This document shows positions 17,182 to 45,366 of a stretch of DNA of 64,000 nt, piece by piece. The notes under the pieces were generated by a model. That model ran no database searches and was not told where the DNA came from. It saw only the letters and a program-made list of their open reading frames with translations. Location: positions 1 through 64,000 of the IMG/VR virus record IMGVR_UViG_3300028800_000069. One strand, written 5' to 3'. This DNA comes from a virus. A program made the translations under genes and the position numbers. The stretch's first letter is position 1. Every line of letters begins with the position of its first letter.

Positions 17182-17496
17182 TTAGTACTTCTTCAGATAC
17201 TCTAGAGCGCTCTCGAATAGATCAATTCTATCTTGAAACATACCTAGGACTCTGTTACATGTGCCACATAGAAAACCTCGTGGTACCGGAGGGTCTGAGT
17301 GCTTATGGTCAGCATGCAGTCTTCTTCCGTTAGTGGACTTTCTGTGGCATATAGCACACATTCCATCTTGTTTCTTCTCTTGCTCTTCGTAGCGTTCTTT
17401 TGTCCACCCTTGTTTCTTAACACGCCAAAGTAATTTCCTTAAACTTTCATCATAAGGATTGCACTTACACGCGCATTTACATCGTGAACAAGGCAT
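17182..17496 (-). CDS. Endonuclease VII-family nuclease
   Basis: QDGMCAIC...LHADHKH...RGFLCGTCNRVLGMF. Confidence 0.85.
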   Translation of the reverse strand: MPCSRCKCACKCNPYDESLRKLLWRVKKQGWTKERYEEQEKKQDGMCAICHRKSTNGRRLHADHKHSDPPVPRGFLCGTCNRVLGMFQDRIDLFESALEYLKKY

Positions 17497-17686
17497 GTTT
17501 TCTCCAAAGGTATAAGATGGCGAGGTGCGGCAAGTTCTCCGCACCACTGTACAGTTTCGCCAATGTCTCTATGCCGGGGCCGTCACAACCTCGAAAGGAG
17601 ATTACGAGGGACAGGCCCCGGCGTGCTACGCCGCATTGCGCGGTTGGTGCGGAAGAGAACTTTGCCCTTATTTGGGCTACTCTTAA

Positions 17687-17716
17687 AGTATACACCCTAC
17701 CTAAGCCGTCTGTCAA
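17687..17716 (-). promoter_or_regulatory. Near-consensus sigma70-like promoter for the leftward arm
   Basis: TTGACA-18 nt-TATACT, located where the two transcription arms diverge. Confidence 0.65.
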
Positions 17717-18010
17717 GCAAAATCGTTCTCAAAGTGAGACTGAACTAAATTTTGTTCTACGAAGTTTTTCGTACATCCATTTGTTTGCAACGCTATACCC
17801 GCGCCATCAGAACCGTATGTGTTGCAAACAAAGGCATGTTTCACGAGTTGACAGGTTGGGATTCCCATGATATTCTAATCCTGACCCTCCCCGGCAGATA
17901 CCTACACATATACTGTAGGAAGGTAACACTGCTAGGTGGTTACCATTATTAATCAACAAGATAGCTCATTCATAGCACATCTAAGTTATTGAAAGGAAAG
18001 ACCCTCTATT

Positions 18011-18256
18011 ATGTTGAAGACGGCTAAAGCTAGGGAAGCCCGTAGCCAACGGCGGAAGTCCCTGAACGAAGAGCTTTGCGTTTGGCTCCAGCGCGAAAAG
18101 GACATGGCCGTAGCGTTCGACCTGTGCGCCGAGGACCGAGCCGAGAAGCTTGTGTTCATCAGGCAGGAACAAGCGAAGCTACAGAAGGCCCTGCGCGATC
18201 TAGACCGGGGCTTCAGACGGCAGCGAGCGTGGAGCCAAGGAAAGTTACTTTACTGA
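18011..18256 (+). CDS. Basic hypothetical protein
   Basis: 81-aa ORF after AAGGA; first gene of the rightward arm. Confidence 0.45.
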   Translation: MLKTAKAREARSQRRKSLNEELCVWLQREKDMAVAFDLCAEDRAEKLVFIRQEQAKLQKALRDLDRGFRRQRAWSQGKLLY

Positions 18257-18330
18257 TGATCCCCACTGAGTGGGGATGATCATAATTCACAGCATTTCCC
18301 AAAAGTCAACTAGGAGAGTACAATAGTTAC

Positions 18331-20946
18331 ATGCCAGAACTTGTGCAACAATTGCGTCCGCTCGACTTGAGCGCACTGCAGCCTCATCTCAACATCACGG
18401 TTATTAACGATGAGGCCGGACTTCTGCTGTTGAAAGATTATATCGCACGCAAGAAATCTCGCGGGGATTTTTCCGTAGGGTTGGACACTGAAACCAATAT
18501 GTGTGATGACTACTGGTTTCGTCGTGCGCGTACTATTCAAGTTGGAGATCGTGACGAGCAGTTTGTAATCGACCTGTTGGCCTTTGCTGGGTCCAAAGAT
18601 AGACTCATAGCTACGCAGGGAGAATACGGAGCAAACTGCAATGGCGTGTATGACAAAATCTTCGAAGTGCTACGCCCTGTACTGTGCACACGTGACTTCC
18701 TGAAGGTTGGTCAGAACCTTGCATTCGAGTACACGATTTTCTGGTGGAATTTTGGTGTGCGTATCTGGCACTTGTATTCCACGGATTTAGCCGAGCGCGT
18801 AATTCAGGCTGGAACGATTTCATTGAAGAAGATGGCCGAGTTTTCCATGGCGTCGATTGCGGCGCGTCACTTCCAGTTGTTGATTGATAAGACCCTGCAG
18901 CAGACGTTTGATTTAGAATCCCCACTGACTCAGAACCAGATTGAGTACGCTGCGTTTGACGTGCGTTTCCCACACGCGATGCGGCAGGCGCAAGTCAACA
19001 TTATGACTGCGGACCAACTCCTTACCACGGCTCAGATTGAAAATGATGCACTACCTACATTCGCAGACATGCCCATTAACGGGCAGAATCTGGACGACGA
19101 CCGTTGGAAGCTGCGTATTCAACACGTGATGGAGCGGCGTGCAGGCGAGCTAAAGACACTCGATGAAGGATTCATCCCAATAGTCGGTAAGAAGAACGAG
19201 CAGATTGATGAAGCAGAGATAGAGCGTCGATATAAGCACTGGCAGGAAGACTTCCAGTTACCTACGCAACTAGAGACTGATCTTGCAGCACAGAAACGCT
19301 TAGAAAAAGACAAGACAAAGAAGGCAGCACTAGGTGCTCTTTTGAAGGCAGAGGAAAAGAAGCGTGCTGAAGAAAAAGCCAAAGCACGCTCTGCTCACTC
19401 AGAATTAAGCAAGAAGCGCACTGAATGGAAGAAGCTGCTGGAGAAGTGTGAAGGCGAAGCCTATATAAACTATGGCTCACGCGATCAACTATTAGCAGCG
19501 CTGCAACAGATGCCGGGAATGCGAACGATCAAGGATACGACCGATGATACGTTGCTTCGGTACAATGATCGTCCACTCATTCAGACTCTAAGGAAATTCA
19601 ATAAGGGAAAGAAAGACACAGGAACATACGGACTGCAGTGGACCCAACGATGGATTACCAAGCCTTTGTCTAAAGAAGGCTGGAGGCATCCAGTAGATGG
19701 CCGTCTGCATTGTGAGTTCAATCAGCTAGAAGCTGAAACTGGACGCACCTCTTCATCCAAGCCTAACGCACAGAACTTGCCGAAGGACGATGAAGTTCGT
19801 GCCTGTTTCATTTGCGATCCACCTAATCCTTTGGTTCGCGTCTCGGTGTGCTGCGATTCAGACACATACCTTGTGAACAGCAAGTACACCTGCACAAAGT
19901 GTAAAGAGTACTGCGAGACCAAAGACGAAGAGATGTGCATCGTCACCTGCGACATGTCTGGAGCAGAACTCCGCATCATTGCAGAGCTAGCCAATGCCAC
20001 GTCGTGGATCAACGCATTCAACAGAGGGTGGGACGTTCACTCGGTATCTACAGAAATATTAGAGCCGCAGAAATGGCCTGCACTTGCGTGTGTTGGTGGA
20101 GAAACACACTTCGACAAGGAAAAGAACAAAGAAGTAGTTCTTCCTCCGTGCGCCTATTACGAGAAGGATGCAAATGGAGAACCTAAAAGACAGAAGTGCA
20201 AATGCCCCGGACACGTTGAGCTTCGACAAAAAACTAAGTCTATCAACTTCTTGCTTTGTTACGGTGGAGGACCAGCGGCTCTGGCCGATGACCTTGGCAT
20301 TACCGTAGATGCGGCAAAGGAATTGATGCGGCAGCACGAAGCTGCATTCCCTGATGTGTGGTCTTACCTTGAACGTAGCGGTAAGCTGGCAAAGGCTATG
20401 CGAGAAGCTAGGGACATGTTCGGCAGACGCCGTGCGTTCCCCGTGCCTACTCGTGAGATGGCCAAGGAATGGTGGAAGGATGAACACGAAGAGTCTCTGG
20501 AGTTAACAGAGGATGAGCAGAAAGCAAACATCTTCAGGTTCAAATCCACGCAACTGCGCGAGCCAAACAAAGAAGAATTAAAACAGCTAACGCACAGGAA
20601 CCCTACCGAGAAAGAAATCGACAGGGCCTTGTATGCTCTGGCAGGAAGCGTAGAACGCCGAGGAAAGAACCACTGTATCCAAGGAACAAACGCCTCTATC
20701 ATCAAACGTGCTATGGGCTGTGGCTTCGACAAGGACGGAAAGCCCTATCTCTGGCACACGTTGATACAGTACCGTGCCAAGGTACAGAACATGGTGCACG
20801 ATGAGTTGGTCATTGGCTGTCCGAAGAGATTCGGTAAGTTAGTGGCAGAACTTATTGCAGATGCGTTCAAGCGTGCGGCGGCAGAAGTCATGCATCTTGT
20901 GACAATGGAAGCTGACTACCATATAGCAAATCGTTGGATCAAATAA
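18331..20946 (+). CDS. polA: Family A DNA polymerase with 3'-5' exonuclease domain
   Basis: Exo motifs LDTET, QNLAFE and YAAFD; TGRTSSSKPNAQNLP; motif A CDMSGAELR; motif B RQKTKSINFLLCYG; IQGTNA; motif C VHDEL. Confidence 0.95.
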   Translation: MPELVQQLRPLDLSALQPHLNITVINDEAGLLLLKDYIARKKSRGDFSVGLDTETNMCDDYWFRRARTIQVGDRDEQFVIDLLAFAGSKDRLIATQGEYGANCNGVYDKIFEVLRPVLCTRDFLKVGQNLAFEYTIFWWNFGVRIWHLYSTDLAERVIQAGTISLKKMAEFSMASIAARHFQLLIDKTLQQTFDLESPLTQNQIEYAAFDVRFPHAMRQAQVNIMTADQLLTTAQIENDALPTFADMPINGQNLDDDRWKLRIQHVMERRAGELKTLDEGFIPIVGKKNEQIDEAEIERRYKHWQEDFQLPTQLETDLAAQKRLEKDKTKKAALGALLKAEEKKRAEEKAKARSAHSELSKKRTEWKKLLEKCEGEAYINYGSRDQLLAALQQMPGMRTIKDTTDDTLLRYNDRPLIQTLRKFNKGKKDTGTYGLQWTQRWITKPLSKEGWRHPVDGRLHCEFNQLEAETGRTSSSKPNAQNLPKDDEVRACFICDPPNPLVRVSVCCDSDTYLVNSKYTCTKCKEYCETKDEEMCIVTCDMSGAELRIIAELANATSWINAFNRGWDVHSVSTEILEPQKWPALACVGGETHFDKEKNKEVVLPPCAYYEKDANGEPKRQKCKCPGHVELRQKTKSINFLLCYGGGPAALADDLGITVDAAKELMRQHEAAFPDVWSYLERSGKLAKAMREARDMFGRRRAFPVPTREMAKEWWKDEHEESLELTEDEQKANIFRFKSTQLREPNKEELKQLTHRNPTEKEIDRALYALAGSVERRGKNHCIQGTNASIIKRAMGCGFDKDGKPYLWHTLIQYRAKVQNMVHDELVIGCPKRFGKLVAELIADAFKRAAAEVMHLVTMEADYHIANRWIK

Positions 20947-22160: not shown

Positions 22161-22322
22161 GATGTGGCTACGCTGCGAATGGCTGGTATTCGTAAGAGAC
22201 TACAAGGATGCCACCAGTACGTGCTGGAAGTGTGGACGCTATGGAGCATCTGTGTGCAGCCTAGTGTACCCCAAGCGATTGTGTGACCCATGCGCAGCAG
22301 CGGTGTGTCGAAGGGCGGGACT

Positions 22323-23500
22323 ATGATTTTCATACTAGCAGAAGATCACATGCAAGCTACATGGTTAGCCAATACACTGCGTCTAGAAAAAAAGTCATGG
22401 GTGTACCTTACACGTGTAGTGCAGCTAATGGGTATAAGAGATGCTGTGATTTTGCGCTGGGGTAATTATTACAGGGCCGAAGAGTTTGTATGGATAATGA
22501 ACACCATAGAGTATAACGGTCTGACACTGCTCGATGTTGATGACGACTGGATGAGACGAAGGGAGCAACATGGCAAAGCGACTGACGAAGCGCACAGCAG
22601 TTGAGGCTCCTAAGCCTCTCCCTGCACGCGGCAAAGAGGAAGAGCCAGAGACAACGCTTGGCAAAGGCCCAGAGTCTGTTGCCGGGAAATTTGAGCCGCT
22701 AATAGGCTGGTGTGCTAATTGCGAGAAGTACCCAGCCAACTCCGAGTTCGATTACCTGTGCTACAACTGTCACAAGGATGCAGAGGGATTAGAGTACGAC
22801 GAGGAAACTAAGCTCTGGATCAAGAAAGCAAAAAGGAGAAAGTAATGTGGACTAAAAAAGAATGGAGAGCAATTCATTTCGTTGAAGGACAGACCATTAA
22901 GGAGTTCTTAAAGCAGTTCAAAAACTTCACTGGAGAAGAGACTATAGTGTGGAGTGCTATAGGTGGTATTTTTAGGTCTGCCATTAGTACTCCCGGTCCA
23001 GATGGTAAGGTGCACTGCTACTTAACAGTGGTACCAAAGGAGAAAGGCCAAGAGAAAGGCCAAGGGCCAGAGGTTGACACTACCGTGTTTCCTCCTGACC
23101 AGTTTCAGAAACAAGAGAAGGGTGAGTGTGCCACAAGTAAGACCACGGAAACACTCAGACCGCCACTCACCGAGTTCGAGCAGGAACTACGCAAGCTCAT
23201 CAACAGCTACTCCATGGAGAATCACAGCAACACTCCAGACAACATCCTAGCGGAGTACCTATGCTCATGCTTGGATGTGTTCGGAAGGGCAACTATGCAG
23301 CGTGAGCGCTGGTATGGAAGGAGGGTATTCTGATGACTGACCCAATTGTCGAAGCACTGCTGGGTTTAGTAGAGACAATGCGAAAACTCACAGCGTTTAT
23401 TGAGAGCATCAACCAAAGGCTTTACAAAGTAGAGGACAAGTTGGCACCACGCATACCCACCGCATCAGAAAGCAACGCACGTTTCAATCGAGAGAACTAA
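22323..23500 (+). CDS. Run of four small hypothetical genes (22323-22604, 22570-22845, 22845-23333, 23333-23500)
   Basis: Overlapping start/stop codons; 22570 carries a CxxC...CxxC zinc-ribbon pattern. Confidence 0.5.
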
Positions 23501-23517
23501 ACACATGCCTCACATCG

Positions 23518-23548
23518 GCCCCGCGCCTTTGGTGGGGCATTTTTTTTT
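23518..23548 (+). terminator. Rho-independent terminator ending the polA operon
   Basis: GCCCCGC-gccttt-gGTGGGGC followed by A and nine T. Confidence 0.85.
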
Positions 23549-24041
23549 GGCCCAAACGGCCTCTGGCTCGCGCCACGTTTCTGCCGTAAGGCTTCCCGAA
23601 TTTTTCCAACGGCTCCCGCACAAACCCGTGGCAGTTTGCATGAAACGTTCCTAAGCGGATCGCCGCGCCGGGGCAGGACGCCCTGCGAATCGCAATGTTA
23701 CAAGCTGTAACGTACAGCTACGTATCACAATGAGATTTCCCTGCAAATGCAATGGGTTAGCTACGCAGTGGTCCTGCCATCTTGTTGTAAACAAAAGGAA
23801 AGTTACCGTCCTAGCACATTTCCTAACTTTCCCGTACCTCAGGGCCGGGACGTTACCGTACGGGAACACCCTAGCGAGAGCGCCAGGGTCATGTCGGGGA
23901 CAGGGCCGTGCGTGTGGTACACGCCTCCGCGTAGTCACCCCCACGCGCTGGAAAGGGTGGTCCGTTTAGGGGGTATCTCCGGGTCCGTTCTGCCCATAGA
24001 TTCGCCTGACCTTCGCTGTGTCGATCAGCACACACCGCTAG

Positions 24042-24732
24042 GCATTCGCTACTGTCAAGCTGACCACCCCATGGCATTCGCTATGCATTCGCCCTGCGTG
24101 CCCTATGCTCAGGTACTCACGGCGTACGCCATACGCTTTCCCTTCGCTGCCGCTGCCGCTGGTGTCGAGGCAGGAGAGAGCAGAGCACAGGGTATTCGCC
24201 ACGCATTCGCTATGTCATTGACAACACAGGATCGAGGCATTCGCCACGCATTCGCTATGCAATGGTTGAGCGAGTGGCCAAGCGCATCCGAGGACATTGC
24301 TGTGGACAGGGGCGGGGAACCTGATCCCTAGCGAATACTTAGCGAACGCATTGCGGTGAGCGTAGCTAACGCCTAGGGGAATGAATAAGATAGAGCGAAG
24401 GAAAGGCAAAGCTATGTGCTACAACCTGTAGTGTTACACCATGTAACAAAGCAAGGCAAGGGCTGGGCATGTGCTAAGAGAATACCGTTTCAATATGATA
24501 GATAGGGTTCTGCCTTGCAATCCTGAACTGGCTCGAAGCATGGCAAAGGTACGGCTGGGAACGGTGAAGGAACAATGCTACCGCATGGTATCTGCCTGTC
24601 TTCTCCTTCTATCAGTCACTCCGACTCATGCGCGAGAATGCGAACGTACAGCGTACGCTTTGTGCTGGTGCTGGTGCTGGTGCATTGCCGATTCGAGAAC
24701 AGAGAACGGCATAGCAGACGCGTGGCGAATGC
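24042..24732. repeat. Cluster of (G)CATTCGC(T/C)A repeats in a non-coding region
   Basis: Copies near 24042, 24074 and 24085; duplicated ATTCGCCACGCATTCGCTATG at ~24194 and ~24239; inverted copies at ~24329 and ~24721. Confidence 0.7.
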
Positions 24733-25028
24733 AGGATCGATTCCTAGGCGGTTTCCCTGCCGCTGGCTGCGTGATTTATCCTCCTGTGACAGTCAGAGCC
24801 TCCGCGCCGGGTTCGAGCGTAGAATCGACGCCTAGCAGGCACATAGATAATGAGAAATGCGTGTAAGTTCTACGCAGTCAGTGATATAGCACCAACGTGC
24901 AGAACACATGGCACTAAAGTTGTAATCAGGCAAACTTTATTTCCTTTGTTTGCAACACTTTGGCACTGAAGTGCTATGCTTTCGCACTTTCGTGCTGTTT
25001 TCGTACATGCCCCCTGTGCTATGCTGGC

Positions 25029-25620
25029 TTCAGTCGCCGGAGTCCTCCACCGGACGGGCGATCAGCAGAGCCGATAAGTTAAGAGGCCGAGCGAGTCGGA
25101 AGTTGGCAGGAGAGCCCCTAGCGGGACAGTCCAGCGACAGGCTACGAAGTACAGGGGCGCAGCAGCCCTATATCCCAATCTGCTAGGCAATCGCAGAGCA
25201 CGCAGCGAAGCGACTGGAAAGCACGCCGTAGGGTAAGGCAATCGAGGGTAACTTAGAATGCCGAGGCATACGACGGGCGACAAACATCGACTGACCCCAG
25301 CCGCACACACGCAGCGCAAGCCGAGTGATAGAGACCGAAGCGAATGAATGTAAGGGTGAAGCAACTAGCGTAGCCGTTCTAATCCGTACTGACGGGCAAT
25401 TAACGGTGATCGAGGCGCTGGACAAACCGCACCCTTATATGACGGTGAACCATTCGCAATAGGCAAGCCGAAGCCGTACCAGTCAAGGGAACGAAGCTAA
25501 GCACACCGCCATCTCGTGAGAGATCGTAGGACGCCTAGCGAACAGAGCCTCCCACTGCTACGTTAAACCAACACCTCTGTTAAAGCCGCAAAGAGTGAAC
25601 CTGCAAAGAGTGAATCGGTC
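25029..25620 (+). ncRNA. Candidate large highly structured ncRNA (~600 nt)
   Basis: No credible plus-strand ORF; follows TGcTATGCT (25017-25025); many helices plus two long-range loop pairings. Confidence 0.65.
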
Positions 25621-25775
25621 TAGCAAACCGCGAGTGACCCATGCAGCGAGTGACCCATGCGCACATCTTGAGAAAATGTACAGCACACACGGGGCCTTCA
25701 CAATCTGAGTCTGATGACGCAGGGTTGGCTGCAATCGAGTGTGCTGTGCCGTTTAGTCAAGACACGGAGGACACC

Positions 25776-28700
25776 ATGCGTCTAAACAACTTCGCAACGT
25801 TGCAACGTGGAGACCGCATCAAAGTGAAAATGTATCGCGCTGATAGTCAGGTAATGACTGTCACAGGAGAGCCATTCGAGAGTAATACCTTGGTGCCTGT
25901 CATAGATGAAGCAGGCAAGCAGTACAGCGTTTACTTCCGCGACGTTCTCAAGTTCGAGTACCCCAAAGATCAATTCTAAGGAGACCGCCATGAAGTCCGA
26001 AGCACAGCGCAGCACAATAACAACGTCAGCGCACAACGTATGGTCAGTGGCGGTGCATCATTACCTGACCGAAAAAGAATACCTCACGCTAACGTTGGGG
26101 CATGTGAAGGCTACACACGCATCCTTCAGGACATCAGGACAAGCGCTTGGTTGGATCAAAAGATTAGCCAAGAGTGAACCCGGAGGAGACGCATCCTTCA
26201 ACATAGTGTGCTGGGCAGAGGCAGAGCAACCTTGGGACATATACTTCGAGTAAAGGAGACCACCATGTATGACACGCTAGAAAAACGCCTGACCGCTGCT
26301 GGCCAGCGCACCACGAAGTTACAGCTTGCCTTTGATGCGCTGGAGTTCGCTAACGGACACGTGGGCGCTGCTAAGGACATCATCGCCAAACGTGGTATCC
26401 GCATCAGCGCACGAACATGGAACAAGGCAATCACCGCTCGCCTCTGCCATCTCACCGCAGCCGAACGCTGCCCACGCTAAGGAGACCGCCCCTACACATA
26501 CCAGTGGTGGCTATAGAAACATAGCCGCAGCATTACAAGTCAAGGGTTTGAAATAACAGTGCATTCACTTAGAATCCAATCCCAAGAGGAGAAGATCATG
26601 TTTAGCAAAAAGCATTACGAGTTTCTGGCCGCATTCATTGCGTATGAGCGAAGCGTTTCCACTGGTAACAACTGGGACGCTGACCAGCAGCGCACGGCAA
26701 CTATCGACGGACTTGCACGGCTATTAGCAAGGCGTTTAGAGCAGAACAATACCAAGTTCAATCGTGAGCGTTTCCTCGAAGCATGCGACGTACCGGAGGT
26801 GCTGTAATGACTAGCGCAGACCTTAACAACAGAGCAAAGGCAATTGCTAAGCTACTAACAGATGCAAAACCCTTCAGCGTAGTGCGTCACCAGCGCTTCG
26901 GCAATGAGCAGGCCGCAAGCGTAACAGGTGGCACACTGAGACGCGGACAAATCGTAACTTTGCATCCCATGTGCGGCACTGAACGGTACATCCGCAAAGC
27001 AATCGCTCAGGACATCGCAGAGCAAGAGTGCGAGCCGTTAGTCTAACGCCCACAGCCGCGCTACATGCGCAGGAGAATCCAATGCTTTCACTTTCGCAGA
27101 TGACCCCAGTAGCTTACATAACAGATGGCGCAATCGTTTGCCTCGCATGCGGTGACAAGGCTGGTCTACCAGTCAAGGACCAACTCATCGCCTACAACCT
27201 TGAATCCGACTTCTATGAGGATGGATTGAACTGTGACGAATGTGGCAAGGAACTGGTTGAGCCGTACGTTGAGGATGAACCCGAAGCAGAAGACGAGGTA
27301 TAATCGCGCAGGGCCTTGAGTGCCCTGCACAGCACAGACATAAAGACCGCAAGGATAACCGCCAAGCGATACCATTGGATAACACTTGGTGAGTCTGCGC
27401 TGTGTAGGCTACTCAACTTTCACCGGAGGATACCATCATGGATAACGTTGACGACATCATCGACTACGAAGACGGTAAACAGACGCACGAAGAGACCATC
27501 GCAATGTTTCAAAGCATGATCAATAGTGGCATGGCGTGGAAACTGCAAGGCAGCTATGGCCGCGAAGCAATGTCCCTAATCGAGTCTGGGCAATGCATCC
27601 TCGGTGAAGTAGGGCACCACGACTACTACGGCAACTACGTGCCAAGCCGTTATGAGGTGAAGGCCGGGACCAAAGGCAGTGTTGAGTATGCCGCTGCACG
27701 CAACTAACGTTCGCAGCCTAACGTTCGCAGCCGCGCACAGCGCACAGGAGCACACCATATGATGGGAGCAAGCTATAAAACCAAAAAGGCCCTGAAGGAA
27801 TCCGTAGGGCAATCGCTACGCTACGTTGAAACGTCCATGTTCGGGGAAGAGTACAAAGCGAACGGAACATTCTGCGTAGTCGGACCTAGCCCACTACAGC
27901 GCAAGTGGTTTGCTGAAGTGACCATGAAAGATGGCCTGATCGCAAAGGTAAGCTAATAGCGCACACGCGCAATGGAGACTACCATGCCACGTATCCCGAA
28001 GCACACTGTAGTAGACACAGACTGCACCAAGGCAGGCAGCGGCAACCTAGCACCCAAGGGTGCAAAGGTAGTCACGCTGAACCTGACAGGTCACACTGGC
28101 TCAATCAAGGCACGGCAGCGCATAGAGCAGACCATTGCTCTGGTCACAGCGCAGGCATTGTTAGACGCTGGGTATTCTCTAGGCGTGAACGATGGCGAGG
28201 AGACCACGATACACCACAGTCGAGACATCGCAGCCATACAGAAAGCACTGTTCACTACGGATGAAGATTGGCTCCTTGTATACAAGCACGAAGCTGGTCA
28301 CATCTACAGCGACGCAGACGGCGCACAGCATGAAGACAACCGTGCCGACTACTGGGTACGCTTTGTGTACGGCAATGATGGCTGGGACGTAATCAGCGAC
28401 TACACCGTGCATCTTGAGCCTGTAATCGGGGAAGGCACCATAGTGCAGAAACTGATTGACCACGCTGAAGAGTATGGCGTGGTGCCTGACCTGACGTACC
28501 GCAATCACAAGCTGACCGTGACCGTGTAAGCACTCAGCGCATGAACCTGTACGCCATGCGCTGGAATGTTCGCACCTCATCGAAGGAGCACACCATGACC
28601 AGCAACAAGCGCACCATCGCCCTATCGGAATTGGCATTAGAAATAGCCTATAAGCTGCACTCAAACCATGGGCAGGCGTGGGAGTTTGTTAAGCCTACCG

Positions 28701-44695: not shown

Positions 44696-44893
44696 ATGCA
44701 ATCACGCACACCTGAAGGCAAGCACACCAAGCGGTTCATCATCTTAGTCGCGGGATCGGACAAGCAATACGTTCGCTCTGGAAACGATGGGCTTAGAGGG
44801 TTTTTTGCCACGAAGGAAGAGGCTCAGGCCGCTCTGGAACCATCCAAGGGTTTGACCAGCACAGGTTTGACCTACAAAGTTCGACAGAAGTAA
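44696..44893 (+). CDS. Small hypothetical protein
   Basis: AAGGAG before MQSRT; F.T...AQ..L...Y.(V/I) motif shared with 41790-41981. Confidence 0.5.
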   Translation: MQSRTPEGKHTKRFIILVAGSDKQYVRSGNDGLRGFFATKEEAQAALEPSKGLTSTGLTYKVRQK

Positions 44894-44904
44894 GTCACCA
44901 AGTT

Positions 44905-45330
44905 ACACACGTCAAAGAATGATTGCAGCATTGCAACACCTCGGTTCGAATCCGAGCAGGTCCACCAAGGGACATACATGCTGTGTACAGGCATGACACT
45001 CAAGAGCGGCGGCTGGTTAACTCAGACCGTGCAGCGTATCAGCGAAGAACTGGACCGCAGAGTGTAAGCTGGGGAACGGCATCCCTACTGTATGTATGCC
45101 CCTCGGTGGGCCTGATACTGGTTATCGACTGCGATGGACTGAGATCATTTTCGTGTCGGATTCTGCCTCGCCACGTTACGGAGAGTCAAAACCAAAAATG
45201 CTAACGATAACATCGTTTCTGCACCCATGAAGGCTATGGGCGCTGCTGCTGGTCGCTAAAGCAGTAGTGCAGTCTCACCACGCGGACCCCGGCTCAGTCC
45301 GGGGCCACCCGCAGTGGGAAAGTGTGGGGA
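44905..45330 (+). ncRNA. ssrA: Circularly permuted (two-piece) tmRNA; outer ends approximate
   Basis: Acceptor piece comes first (T arm CTCGG-TTCGAAT-CCGAG, CAGGTCC-ACCA ending 44967). Coding piece starts GGGCCTG at 45108 and gives a G3-U70 pair; TCGAC follows; P2 pairings join the pieces; tag ANDNIVSAPMKAMGAAAGR* at 45200-45259. Confidence 0.9.
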
Positions 45331-45366
45331 GCAATACCAACGTCTGGAGAATTAGAGGAACATTAA

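Follow-up and report, generated by a model that had tools for sequence, protein, structure and literature searches.

The gene-free 0.75 kb at the head of the early region of this phage is most likely a folded untranslated leader built of separate hairpin modules, and not one giant RNA. The stretch is non-coding, its homologues stand behind promoters, its stems contain compensatory base pairs, and its modules have been exchanged among relatives. The window, by which we mean the whole stretch of DNA analysed here, covers the first 64 kb of a record of 82.7 kb in IMG/VR and encodes a family A DNA polymerase, an RNase H, a terminase, and many small genes. Judged by the polymerase (44% identity), the closest cultured relatives are the Tunturiibacter (Acidobacteriota) phages Tunturi_3 and Tunturi_4; Tunturi 3 is described as a podovirus of 97.6 kb (PMC11924767). 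The clade itself consists of uncultured soil phages of about 100 kb. The window also holds a permuted (two-piece) phage-encoded tmRNA at 44875-45350 with the tag ANDNIVSAPMKAMGAAAGR, the cmscan match covering 44907-45260. The ANDN start of this tag resembles alphaproteobacterial tags and may hint at the host. The host hints differ: the tag would point to an alphaproteobacterium, and the nearest cultured relatives of the polymerase infect Acidobacteriota.

From the terminator of the upstream operon to position 25775 there is no credible gene. The gene-free part up to about 25000 is of ordinary composition, and at the promoter itself (from 25029 on) the T fraction,.21-.26 upstream, falls to.14. 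The landmarks of the region are these:

23518-23547: strong terminator, end of the upstream operon
24971-24980 and 25016-25025, + strand: tandem candidate extended -10 promoters, two copies of GTGCTATGCT
25031-25775, + strand: predicted leader RNA, 745 nt, T-poor and untranslated, at the head of the early operon, supported by stops in all frames, composition, and homologues
25776 (ATG)-25979, + strand: first early gene, 67 aa, from the list of open reading frames, with the ribosome-binding site (RBS) GGAGGA at 25766-71

The 67-aa product of the first early gene matched nothing in Pfam or PHROG, and the gene is not conserved among relatives. Further upstream, GCATTCGC occurs in exactly seven exact copies, all within 24042-24732 and none elsewhere in the 64 kb; six are direct and one is inverted (at 24725), and they lie inside longer repeats of 19-24 nt. 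Situated in a 1.5-kb gene-free stretch upstream of the early promoter, this array looks like the iterons of an origin or an operator.

The first-pass annotation had described 25029-25620 as a candidate purine-rich RNA of about 600 nt with no credible open reading frame. Purines do make up.58 of these bases (A.29, C.28, G.29, T.14) and stop codons interrupt all six frames; the proposed extent proved too short, as the element reaches 25775, not 25620. Over the full leader (25031-25775) T stands at 0.149, and in the leaders of relatives at.12-.21. T-poor windows are found within same-strand genes too, so low T is a sign of the transcribed strand, not of a special element, and is not diagnostic alone. 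Substitutions between the window's leader and its homologue L067 fall on the three codon positions 30, 23, and 31 times, with no three-base periodicity (p 0.51). The stretch is real non-coding DNA. Contigs from four DNA runs represent a near-clonal population with three differences in total, too few to test pairings: two lie upstream (24958 and 24960), and the third, 25357 T>C, lies in the leader and was seen in one low-depth contig. This last change would turn a U-A pair into C-A in a window-specific extension of the TGTAAGGGTG helix.

Homologues of the leader, 288-1074 nt long, were found in nine related metagenomic phage contigs, giving ten variants: W (the window), L067, L010, L012, L055, L011, L006, L050, L015, and L018, of which L011 is truncated by the contig end. 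The polymerase as query led to 29 related loci, while queries with flanking proteins led to 0 and 1 locus, neither useful. The primary sequence of the leader diverges fast. Although the polymerases are 74-87% identical, blastn of 23334-25800 against the 29 polymerase loci aligned the flanks only, at four loci, and nhmmer gave two weak hits; blastn of 24900-25700 against 50,697 phage records found no match. T-poor stretches do occupy the syntenic place in relatives, and it was on reading these that shared islands were seen. Additional members came from pattern scans on the islands and on the repeat motif, and the distant L018 and L015 from reading the loci. A scan of viral contigs with the motif of the first conserved hairpin (H1, below) returned 23 stretches, six of them true, with L050 the only new variant; the same scan of metagenome contigs returned nine, three false and six true (three L055-type copies, one L010 copy, and two of W's own leader). 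The repeat-motif scan yielded 20 stretches, three of them true, with L067 as the sole new homologue, and a scan with CAGCCGCACACACGC yielded 57, the 56 new ones being without similarity to the W or L067 leader. L067 and W show 63% identity over the whole leader and agree far more closely in the central part, with conserved islands of about 45 nt. The L015 leader (L063, G001; first 1100 nt after the promoter) measures 1074 nt, and its second half contains long inverted repeats not seen in other members.

Two further relatives have repeats of other kinds. Tunturi_3 (L064, PP885686.1) has, at the syntenic place, an unannotated 1.66-kb gap (17272-18933) with four tandem TTATTGAGTACGTTTA repeats, then TTGACA-17-TACTGT, then a short leader only. 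L025, a complete relative with direct terminal repeats, carries near its end a gene of tandem GCGCGAACCTCAGG-like units (22200-22442), a pentapeptide-repeat-like coding repeat.

The extended -10 read by the first-pass annotation just ahead of the RNA is present as TG-n-TATGCT, and the placing of the element directly behind a promoter is well founded, the promoter being conserved and of host type. GTGCTATGCT has exactly two exact copies in the 64 kb, and the second would put the candidate transcription start near 25031. A sigma-70-type promoter candidate precedes all nine leaders that have upstream sequence (W and eight of the nine relatives). In the relatives a -35 of TTGACA type is separated by 17 nt from a -10 at the corresponding position, and these eight reach 8-11 of 12; W reaches 7 of 12 and has the TG in addition. 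A CAGT begins 0-10 nt after the end of the -10 in eight of the nine leaders; L015 has none. We infer from this conserved promoter that the leader is transcribed.

Comparison of the leaders resolves the following parts, all on the + strand:

25070-25087, + strand: hairpin H1, with a GCC stem, the 12-nt loop GAUAAGUUAAGA, and a GGC stem
25191-25328, + strand: branched central domain, from RNAalifold of W and L067
25335-25463, + strand: extended hairpin domain, 129 nt, with seven compensatory pairs against L067 and an MFE z of -3.03 (25335-25462)
25525-25568, + strand: module of a hairpin then UUAAAC, closing stem 25525-29/25558-62
25583-97 and 25598-612, + strand: direct repeats, two copies ending GAGTG, from the repeat family D6/D4 search
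25630-44 and 25646-60, + strand: direct repeats GCGAGTGACCCATGC, two copies, from the same D6/D4 search
25670-25758, + strand: long pre-RBS hairpin, main stem 25678-88/25739-49

A homologue search with a covariation check had been proposed as one way to verify the RNA; homologues were found, and compensatory pairs between W and L067 lie above chance. RNAalifold of W 25186-25500 with L067 146-452 gave 65 pairs, of which 14 are compensatory, five are one-sided wobble changes, and none is broken. Column shuffles that kept the conservation pattern (n=300) gave 4.4 +/- 1.9 compensatory pairs with a maximum of 10, so that none of the 300 reached 14, in a test that consists of two sequences only and with a program that itself prefers covarying pairs; the consensus energy has a z of -2.24 against the same kind of shuffle. 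Compensatory pairs beyond chance are the mark of a structured non-coding RNA, as which this region is thus predicted. The central domain is modelled as an irregular long helix (25191-25217/25298-25328) around three hairpins (25227-30/25269-72, 25238-43/25256-61, and 25275-77/25295-97), with compensatory pairs at 25203/25314, 25228/25271, 25230/25269, 25240/25259, 25242/25257, and 25276/25296. The extended hairpin comprises the outer helices 25340-45/25452-57, 25348-55/25433-40, and 25365-68/25418-21 and the inner helices 25374-77/25403-06, 25380-83/25399-402, and 25384-87/25392-95.

Smaller modules are shared more widely. W, L010, L012, L055, L011, L006, and L050 all preserve the H1 loop motif RATAAGTNAAGA, which L067 has with a single change; the loop reads RAUAAGUNAAGA, and the 3-bp stem alternates between GCC/GGC and GGC/GCC. 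A search for targets complementary to the H1 loop gave 22 near-matches against 16 expected, none convincing. In a seven-sequence alignment of the hairpin that precedes UUAAAC, 28 of 28 cells are paired and six are changed on both sides, which none of 500 shuffles reached; the motif CGTWAAAC shows no enrichment in the window (4 found, 2.95 expected). The pre-RBS hairpin of W and L012 aligns over 30 pairs with four compensatory, none broken, and interior G-U pairs on the + strand, and an analogous pre-RBS hairpin in L006, L010, and L050 has 22 pairs with four compensatory. At the other end, the first 200 nt of L012, L011, and L055 form 37 pairs, five compensatory and eight with a broken or gapped cell, and the 5' domain shared by L010 and L067 forms 27 pairs, four compensatory. 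Between the structured leader and the last hairpin, 25583-25660 holds four to five repeats of GAGTGAMCC type at 15-16-nt spacing; similar direct repeats occur in L010, L006, L067, and L015 and are absent from L012, L055, and L050. The relatives fold more stably than shuffles, with MFE z from -2.4 to -5.2 in all six of L010, L012, L006, L050, L055, and L011, -1.7 in L067, and -1.0 in L018.

GUCCUCC at 25042-25048 is complementary to the RBS segment GGAGGAC at 25766-25772, 720 nt downstream, and a CCUC(C) complementary to the Shine-Dalgarno sequence is found in W, L055, L067, L006, L050, and L012. By our own arithmetic, CCUC is no commoner than composition predicts; the complementarity may be a translational lock or chance.

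The first-pass annotation had named six long pairings from the single sequence, and all six are found in place with zero mismatches:

25029-25037/25210-25218: helix 1, TTCAGTCGC/GCGACTGGA, 8 Watson-Crick pairs and 1 G-U
25117-25124/25180-25187, + strand: helix CCTAGCGG/CTGCTAGG, 7 Watson-Crick pairs and 1 G-U
25340-25346/25451-25457: helix GCGAATG/CATTCGC, 7 Watson-Crick pairs
25349-25358/25430-25439: helix TGTAAGGGTG/CACCCTTATA, 9 Watson-Crick pairs and 1 G-U
25129-25136/25416-25423: long-range pairing A, GTCCAGCG/CGCTGGAC, 8 Watson-Crick pairs
25140-25146/25369-25375: long-range pairing B, GGCTACG/CGTAGCC, 7 Watson-Crick pairs

Taken alone, in one sequence, the named helices are at chance level. 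Perfect complementary 7-mers in 25029-25620 number 11 against 8.1 +/- 3.3 in 500 dinucleotide shuffles, complementary 8-mers 2 against 1.9, and the longest helix measures 8 where shuffles average 8.2. The MFE z of the same interval is +0.65 (+ strand) and +0.83 (- strand), and that of the whole W leader (25031-25775) is -0.08; four of five sub-windows of W lie between -1.8 and +0.9, and only 25335-25462 stands out, at -3.03. What distinguishes the six is their fate in the relatives. GCGAATG/CATTCGC and TGTAAGGGTG/CACCCTTATA, which are the two closing stems of the extended hairpin, persist in L067, where one compensatory and one wobble change are seen, and are thereby confirmed. On alignment by eye, CCTAGCGG/CTGCTAGG is kept in L010 as CCUAGCGG/CCGCUAGG, is weaker in L015 (CUUAGC/GCUAGG), and has two mismatches in L067. 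Helix 1 has a 7-bp counterpart in L010, yet the 5' end of each leader can pair with several segments over 6-8 bp; the 3' arm of the helix is also paired within the central domain, and in L067 the 5' end is missing. Two hairpins that had been proposed further 3' do exist in W, ATCTC-GTGA-GAGAT at 25511 and AACAGAG/CTCTGTT at 25541/25575, but neither is kept in L067, which aligns poorly there, nor, as read from the sequence, in L006 or L050.

The long-range loop contacts A and B find no support in the comparison, neither being kept in L067, whose alignment to W is poor in the 5' and 3' parts. Pairing A overlaps the local helix 25365-68/25418-21, which has three compensatory changes between W and L067, and the 3' arm of B overlaps the helix 25374-77/25403-06. 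The 3' arms of both differ in L067, the 5' domain of which is of another type, and L067 has complementarities of 7 bp and 6 bp instead, at non-homologous places. Two hits of at least 7 bp between the two regions that A and B join arise in 2.9% of shuffles, for regions chosen after the fact. On the shuffle rate, the post hoc choice of regions, and the failure to be kept, A and B are treated as chance.

The architecture that emerges is a modular one. L067 joins an L010-type 5' domain to a W-type centre, and in L006 the repeat part is cut off from the 5' structured part by three or four small genes. The distance between the anchors ACCGAAGCGA and TAGGCAAGCC is 116 nt in W and 16 nt in L012, which for that reason is without the extended hairpin; a model of this hairpin found no further copy in 18 sources, and the domain was seen only in W and L067. 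In a six-sequence alignment the invariant positions are short islands only. The idea of a single RNA tied together by paired long-range contacts thus gives way before local domains that relatives have exchanged, lost, or had interrupted by genes, in leaders that range from 288 to 1074 nt, and the pattern fits a chain of independently folding units, not one globular RNA. Of the larger proposal, a possibly new large RNA made early in infection, much stands, in that the element is non-coding, lies behind a promoter, belongs to no Rfam family, and has compensatory structure; what falls away is the one ornate RNA of about 600 nt.

Several phage leaders offer analogies. The nut RNAs of lambda and the put RNAs of HK022 are cis-acting antitermination elements behind early promoters; HK022 put consists of two stem-loops, about 70 nt in all, that make RNA polymerase resistant to termination. 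The present leader is like them in lying directly downstream of an early promoter, in having small hairpins with conserved loops and covarying stems, and in the prospect of acting on a transcript that crosses untranslated sequence. It differs in its much greater length (745 nt; put has roughly 70 nt), in its branched domains, and in showing no sequence or model match to either. A nut site of lambda type has a boxA beside a boxB hairpin, with the arginine-rich N protein encoded just downstream. A leader hairpin followed by UUAAAC is present here but, unlike in nut, without a U-run, and Pfam and PHROG searches of the 67-aa gene downstream brought out no N-like protein. None of 47 near-matches (at most three mismatches) to a boxA resembling GCUCUUUAACAA, a consensus of E. 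coli type from which the host's may differ, falls in 25029-25775. In T7 the early leader is mostly promoters, and gene 0.3 is preceded by the RNase III site R0.3. T7 and the window have in common early promoters for the host polymerase, an untranslated stretch of several hundred bases, and a long irregular hairpin just before the first RBS; covarying domains are found here where the T7 leader is mostly promoters, and blastn against the phage database detected no homology. The pre-RBS hairpin, long, irregular, and covarying, may by analogy be cleaved as a T7-type RNase III site.

We lean towards a sigma-70-started, modular, cis-acting early leader in which the conserved-loop hairpins are protein sites. 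Host RNA polymerase would start at the TG-n-TATGCT promoter (25017-25025) and produce a 745-nt untranslated, U-poor, purine-rich leader (25031-25775) that continues into the first early gene. The modules would follow one another as 5' conserved-loop hairpin, central domain, 129-nt extended hairpin, UUAAAC hairpin, direct repeats, and pre-RBS hairpin. The RNA would act in cis: its conserved-loop hairpins would bind a protein, as the lambda nut or HK022 put elements do, and with this factor bound, polymerase and transcript would come through several hundred bases that are not translated. Being poor in U, the leader would be spared U-tract terminators and AU-rich RNase sites; its final hairpin would serve processing or stability, as the RNase III site ahead of T7 gene 0.3 does. 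The early operon shows no surplus of terminator-like sites (22 against 20.0 +/- 5.8); with no such excess, no boxA, and no partner protein found, the antitermination role is without direct support.

The next explanation in rank is that of a free RNA: the 0.55-0.65 kb that precede the last hairpin would be released by cleavage or termination, would accumulate early in infection, and would act in trans, perhaps as a host-factor decoy or sponge. We regard this as unlikely, though structure conserved without coding capacity is what it predicts, the long pre-RBS hairpin could be a cleavage site, and fast, mosaic evolution is typical of host-takeover functions. The absence of any known family also suits it. 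The cmscan check proposed in the first-pass annotation found no Rfam family in the element, GOLLD, ROOL, OLE, and group II introns included. Over the whole window at gathering scores only the permuted tmRNA was returned, in 24700-25900 at E up to 10 three unrelated families at chance level, all upstream of 25000, and in L012 18400-19200, L059, and L067 no match at all. The leader resembles GOLLD and ROOL in size range, phage association, and lack of coding capacity (bioRxiv 10.1101/2024.12.08.627333 / PMC12286853). It differs from them in having no Rfam match and no conserved large multi-domain core, and in lying in the sense direction, contiguous with the downstream gene. That sense orientation and direct run into the first early gene make a 5' leader simpler than a free-standing RNA gene. 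There is moreover no terminator between RNA and gene, the length and domains vary (288-1074 nt) with no common large core, the long-range contacts are not kept, and L006 has genes inside the element. In a specific and still more doubtful form, a cut at the pre-RBS hairpin might free a stable early RNA of 0.55-0.65 kb and of a new class, whose exchangeable modules would neutralise host factors such as ribonucleases, termination factors, or RNA-sensing defences; were that true, the mosaic pattern would be the trace of an arms race fought with RNA domains, not proteins.

An element acting at the level of DNA ranks below this, and we think it improbable. Hairpins of single-stranded DNA beside a replication origin might serve in priming, or the repeats might be protein sites in double-stranded DNA, the RNA being a by-product. 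The iteron-like GCATTCGC cluster just upstream, the direct repeats at 25583-25660, and the repeat-rich 1.6-kb gap at the syntenic place in Tunturi_3 speak for it, as does the strand symmetry of compensatory changes: the reverse strand scores as well, with an equal compensatory count in RNAalifold (14) and a lower consensus energy (-67.2 against -54.1). Since the reverse strand scores equally, the assignment of strand rests on promoters, the direction of flanking genes, and the few interior G-U pairs, which together with composition favour the + strand, though not conclusively; interior G-U pairs of the + strand would be C-A on the opposite one. These C-A mismatches count against a DNA element, as do the start of both the T-poor stretch and the first conserved hairpin a few bases from a conserved promoter and the extension of conserved structure right to the RBS. 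Least probable of all, and very much so, are decayed early genes or a neutral spacer with accidental pairings, for although the W leader is no more stable than shuffles, its complementary k-mers are at the chance count, and its primary sequence diverges so fast that blastn aligns only flanks, this reading runs against 14 compensatory pairs where 4.4 are expected, hairpins conserved in seven lineages, and conserved islands of about 45 nt without codon periodicity.

No paper on the leader of this phage clade was found in the literature, and the words non-coding, intergenic, and promoter are absent from the text of PMC11924767. The leader family is not yet catalogued; its ten variants to date all come from a single clade of uncultured soil phages. 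Known jobs for the long folded early leaders of phages are few, namely those of lambda nut, HK022 put, and the T7 RNase III sites. The present element adds to these a set of testable parts: a promoter, a hairpin whose 12-nt loop is invariant, two covarying domains, and a pre-RBS hairpin. It would be one more structured 5' UTR only if neither of two outcomes held. An RNA-based takeover function might emerge; or, if the modules bind host or phage factors, they would show how polymerase can pass over hundreds of untranslated bases without attack by Rho or RNase.
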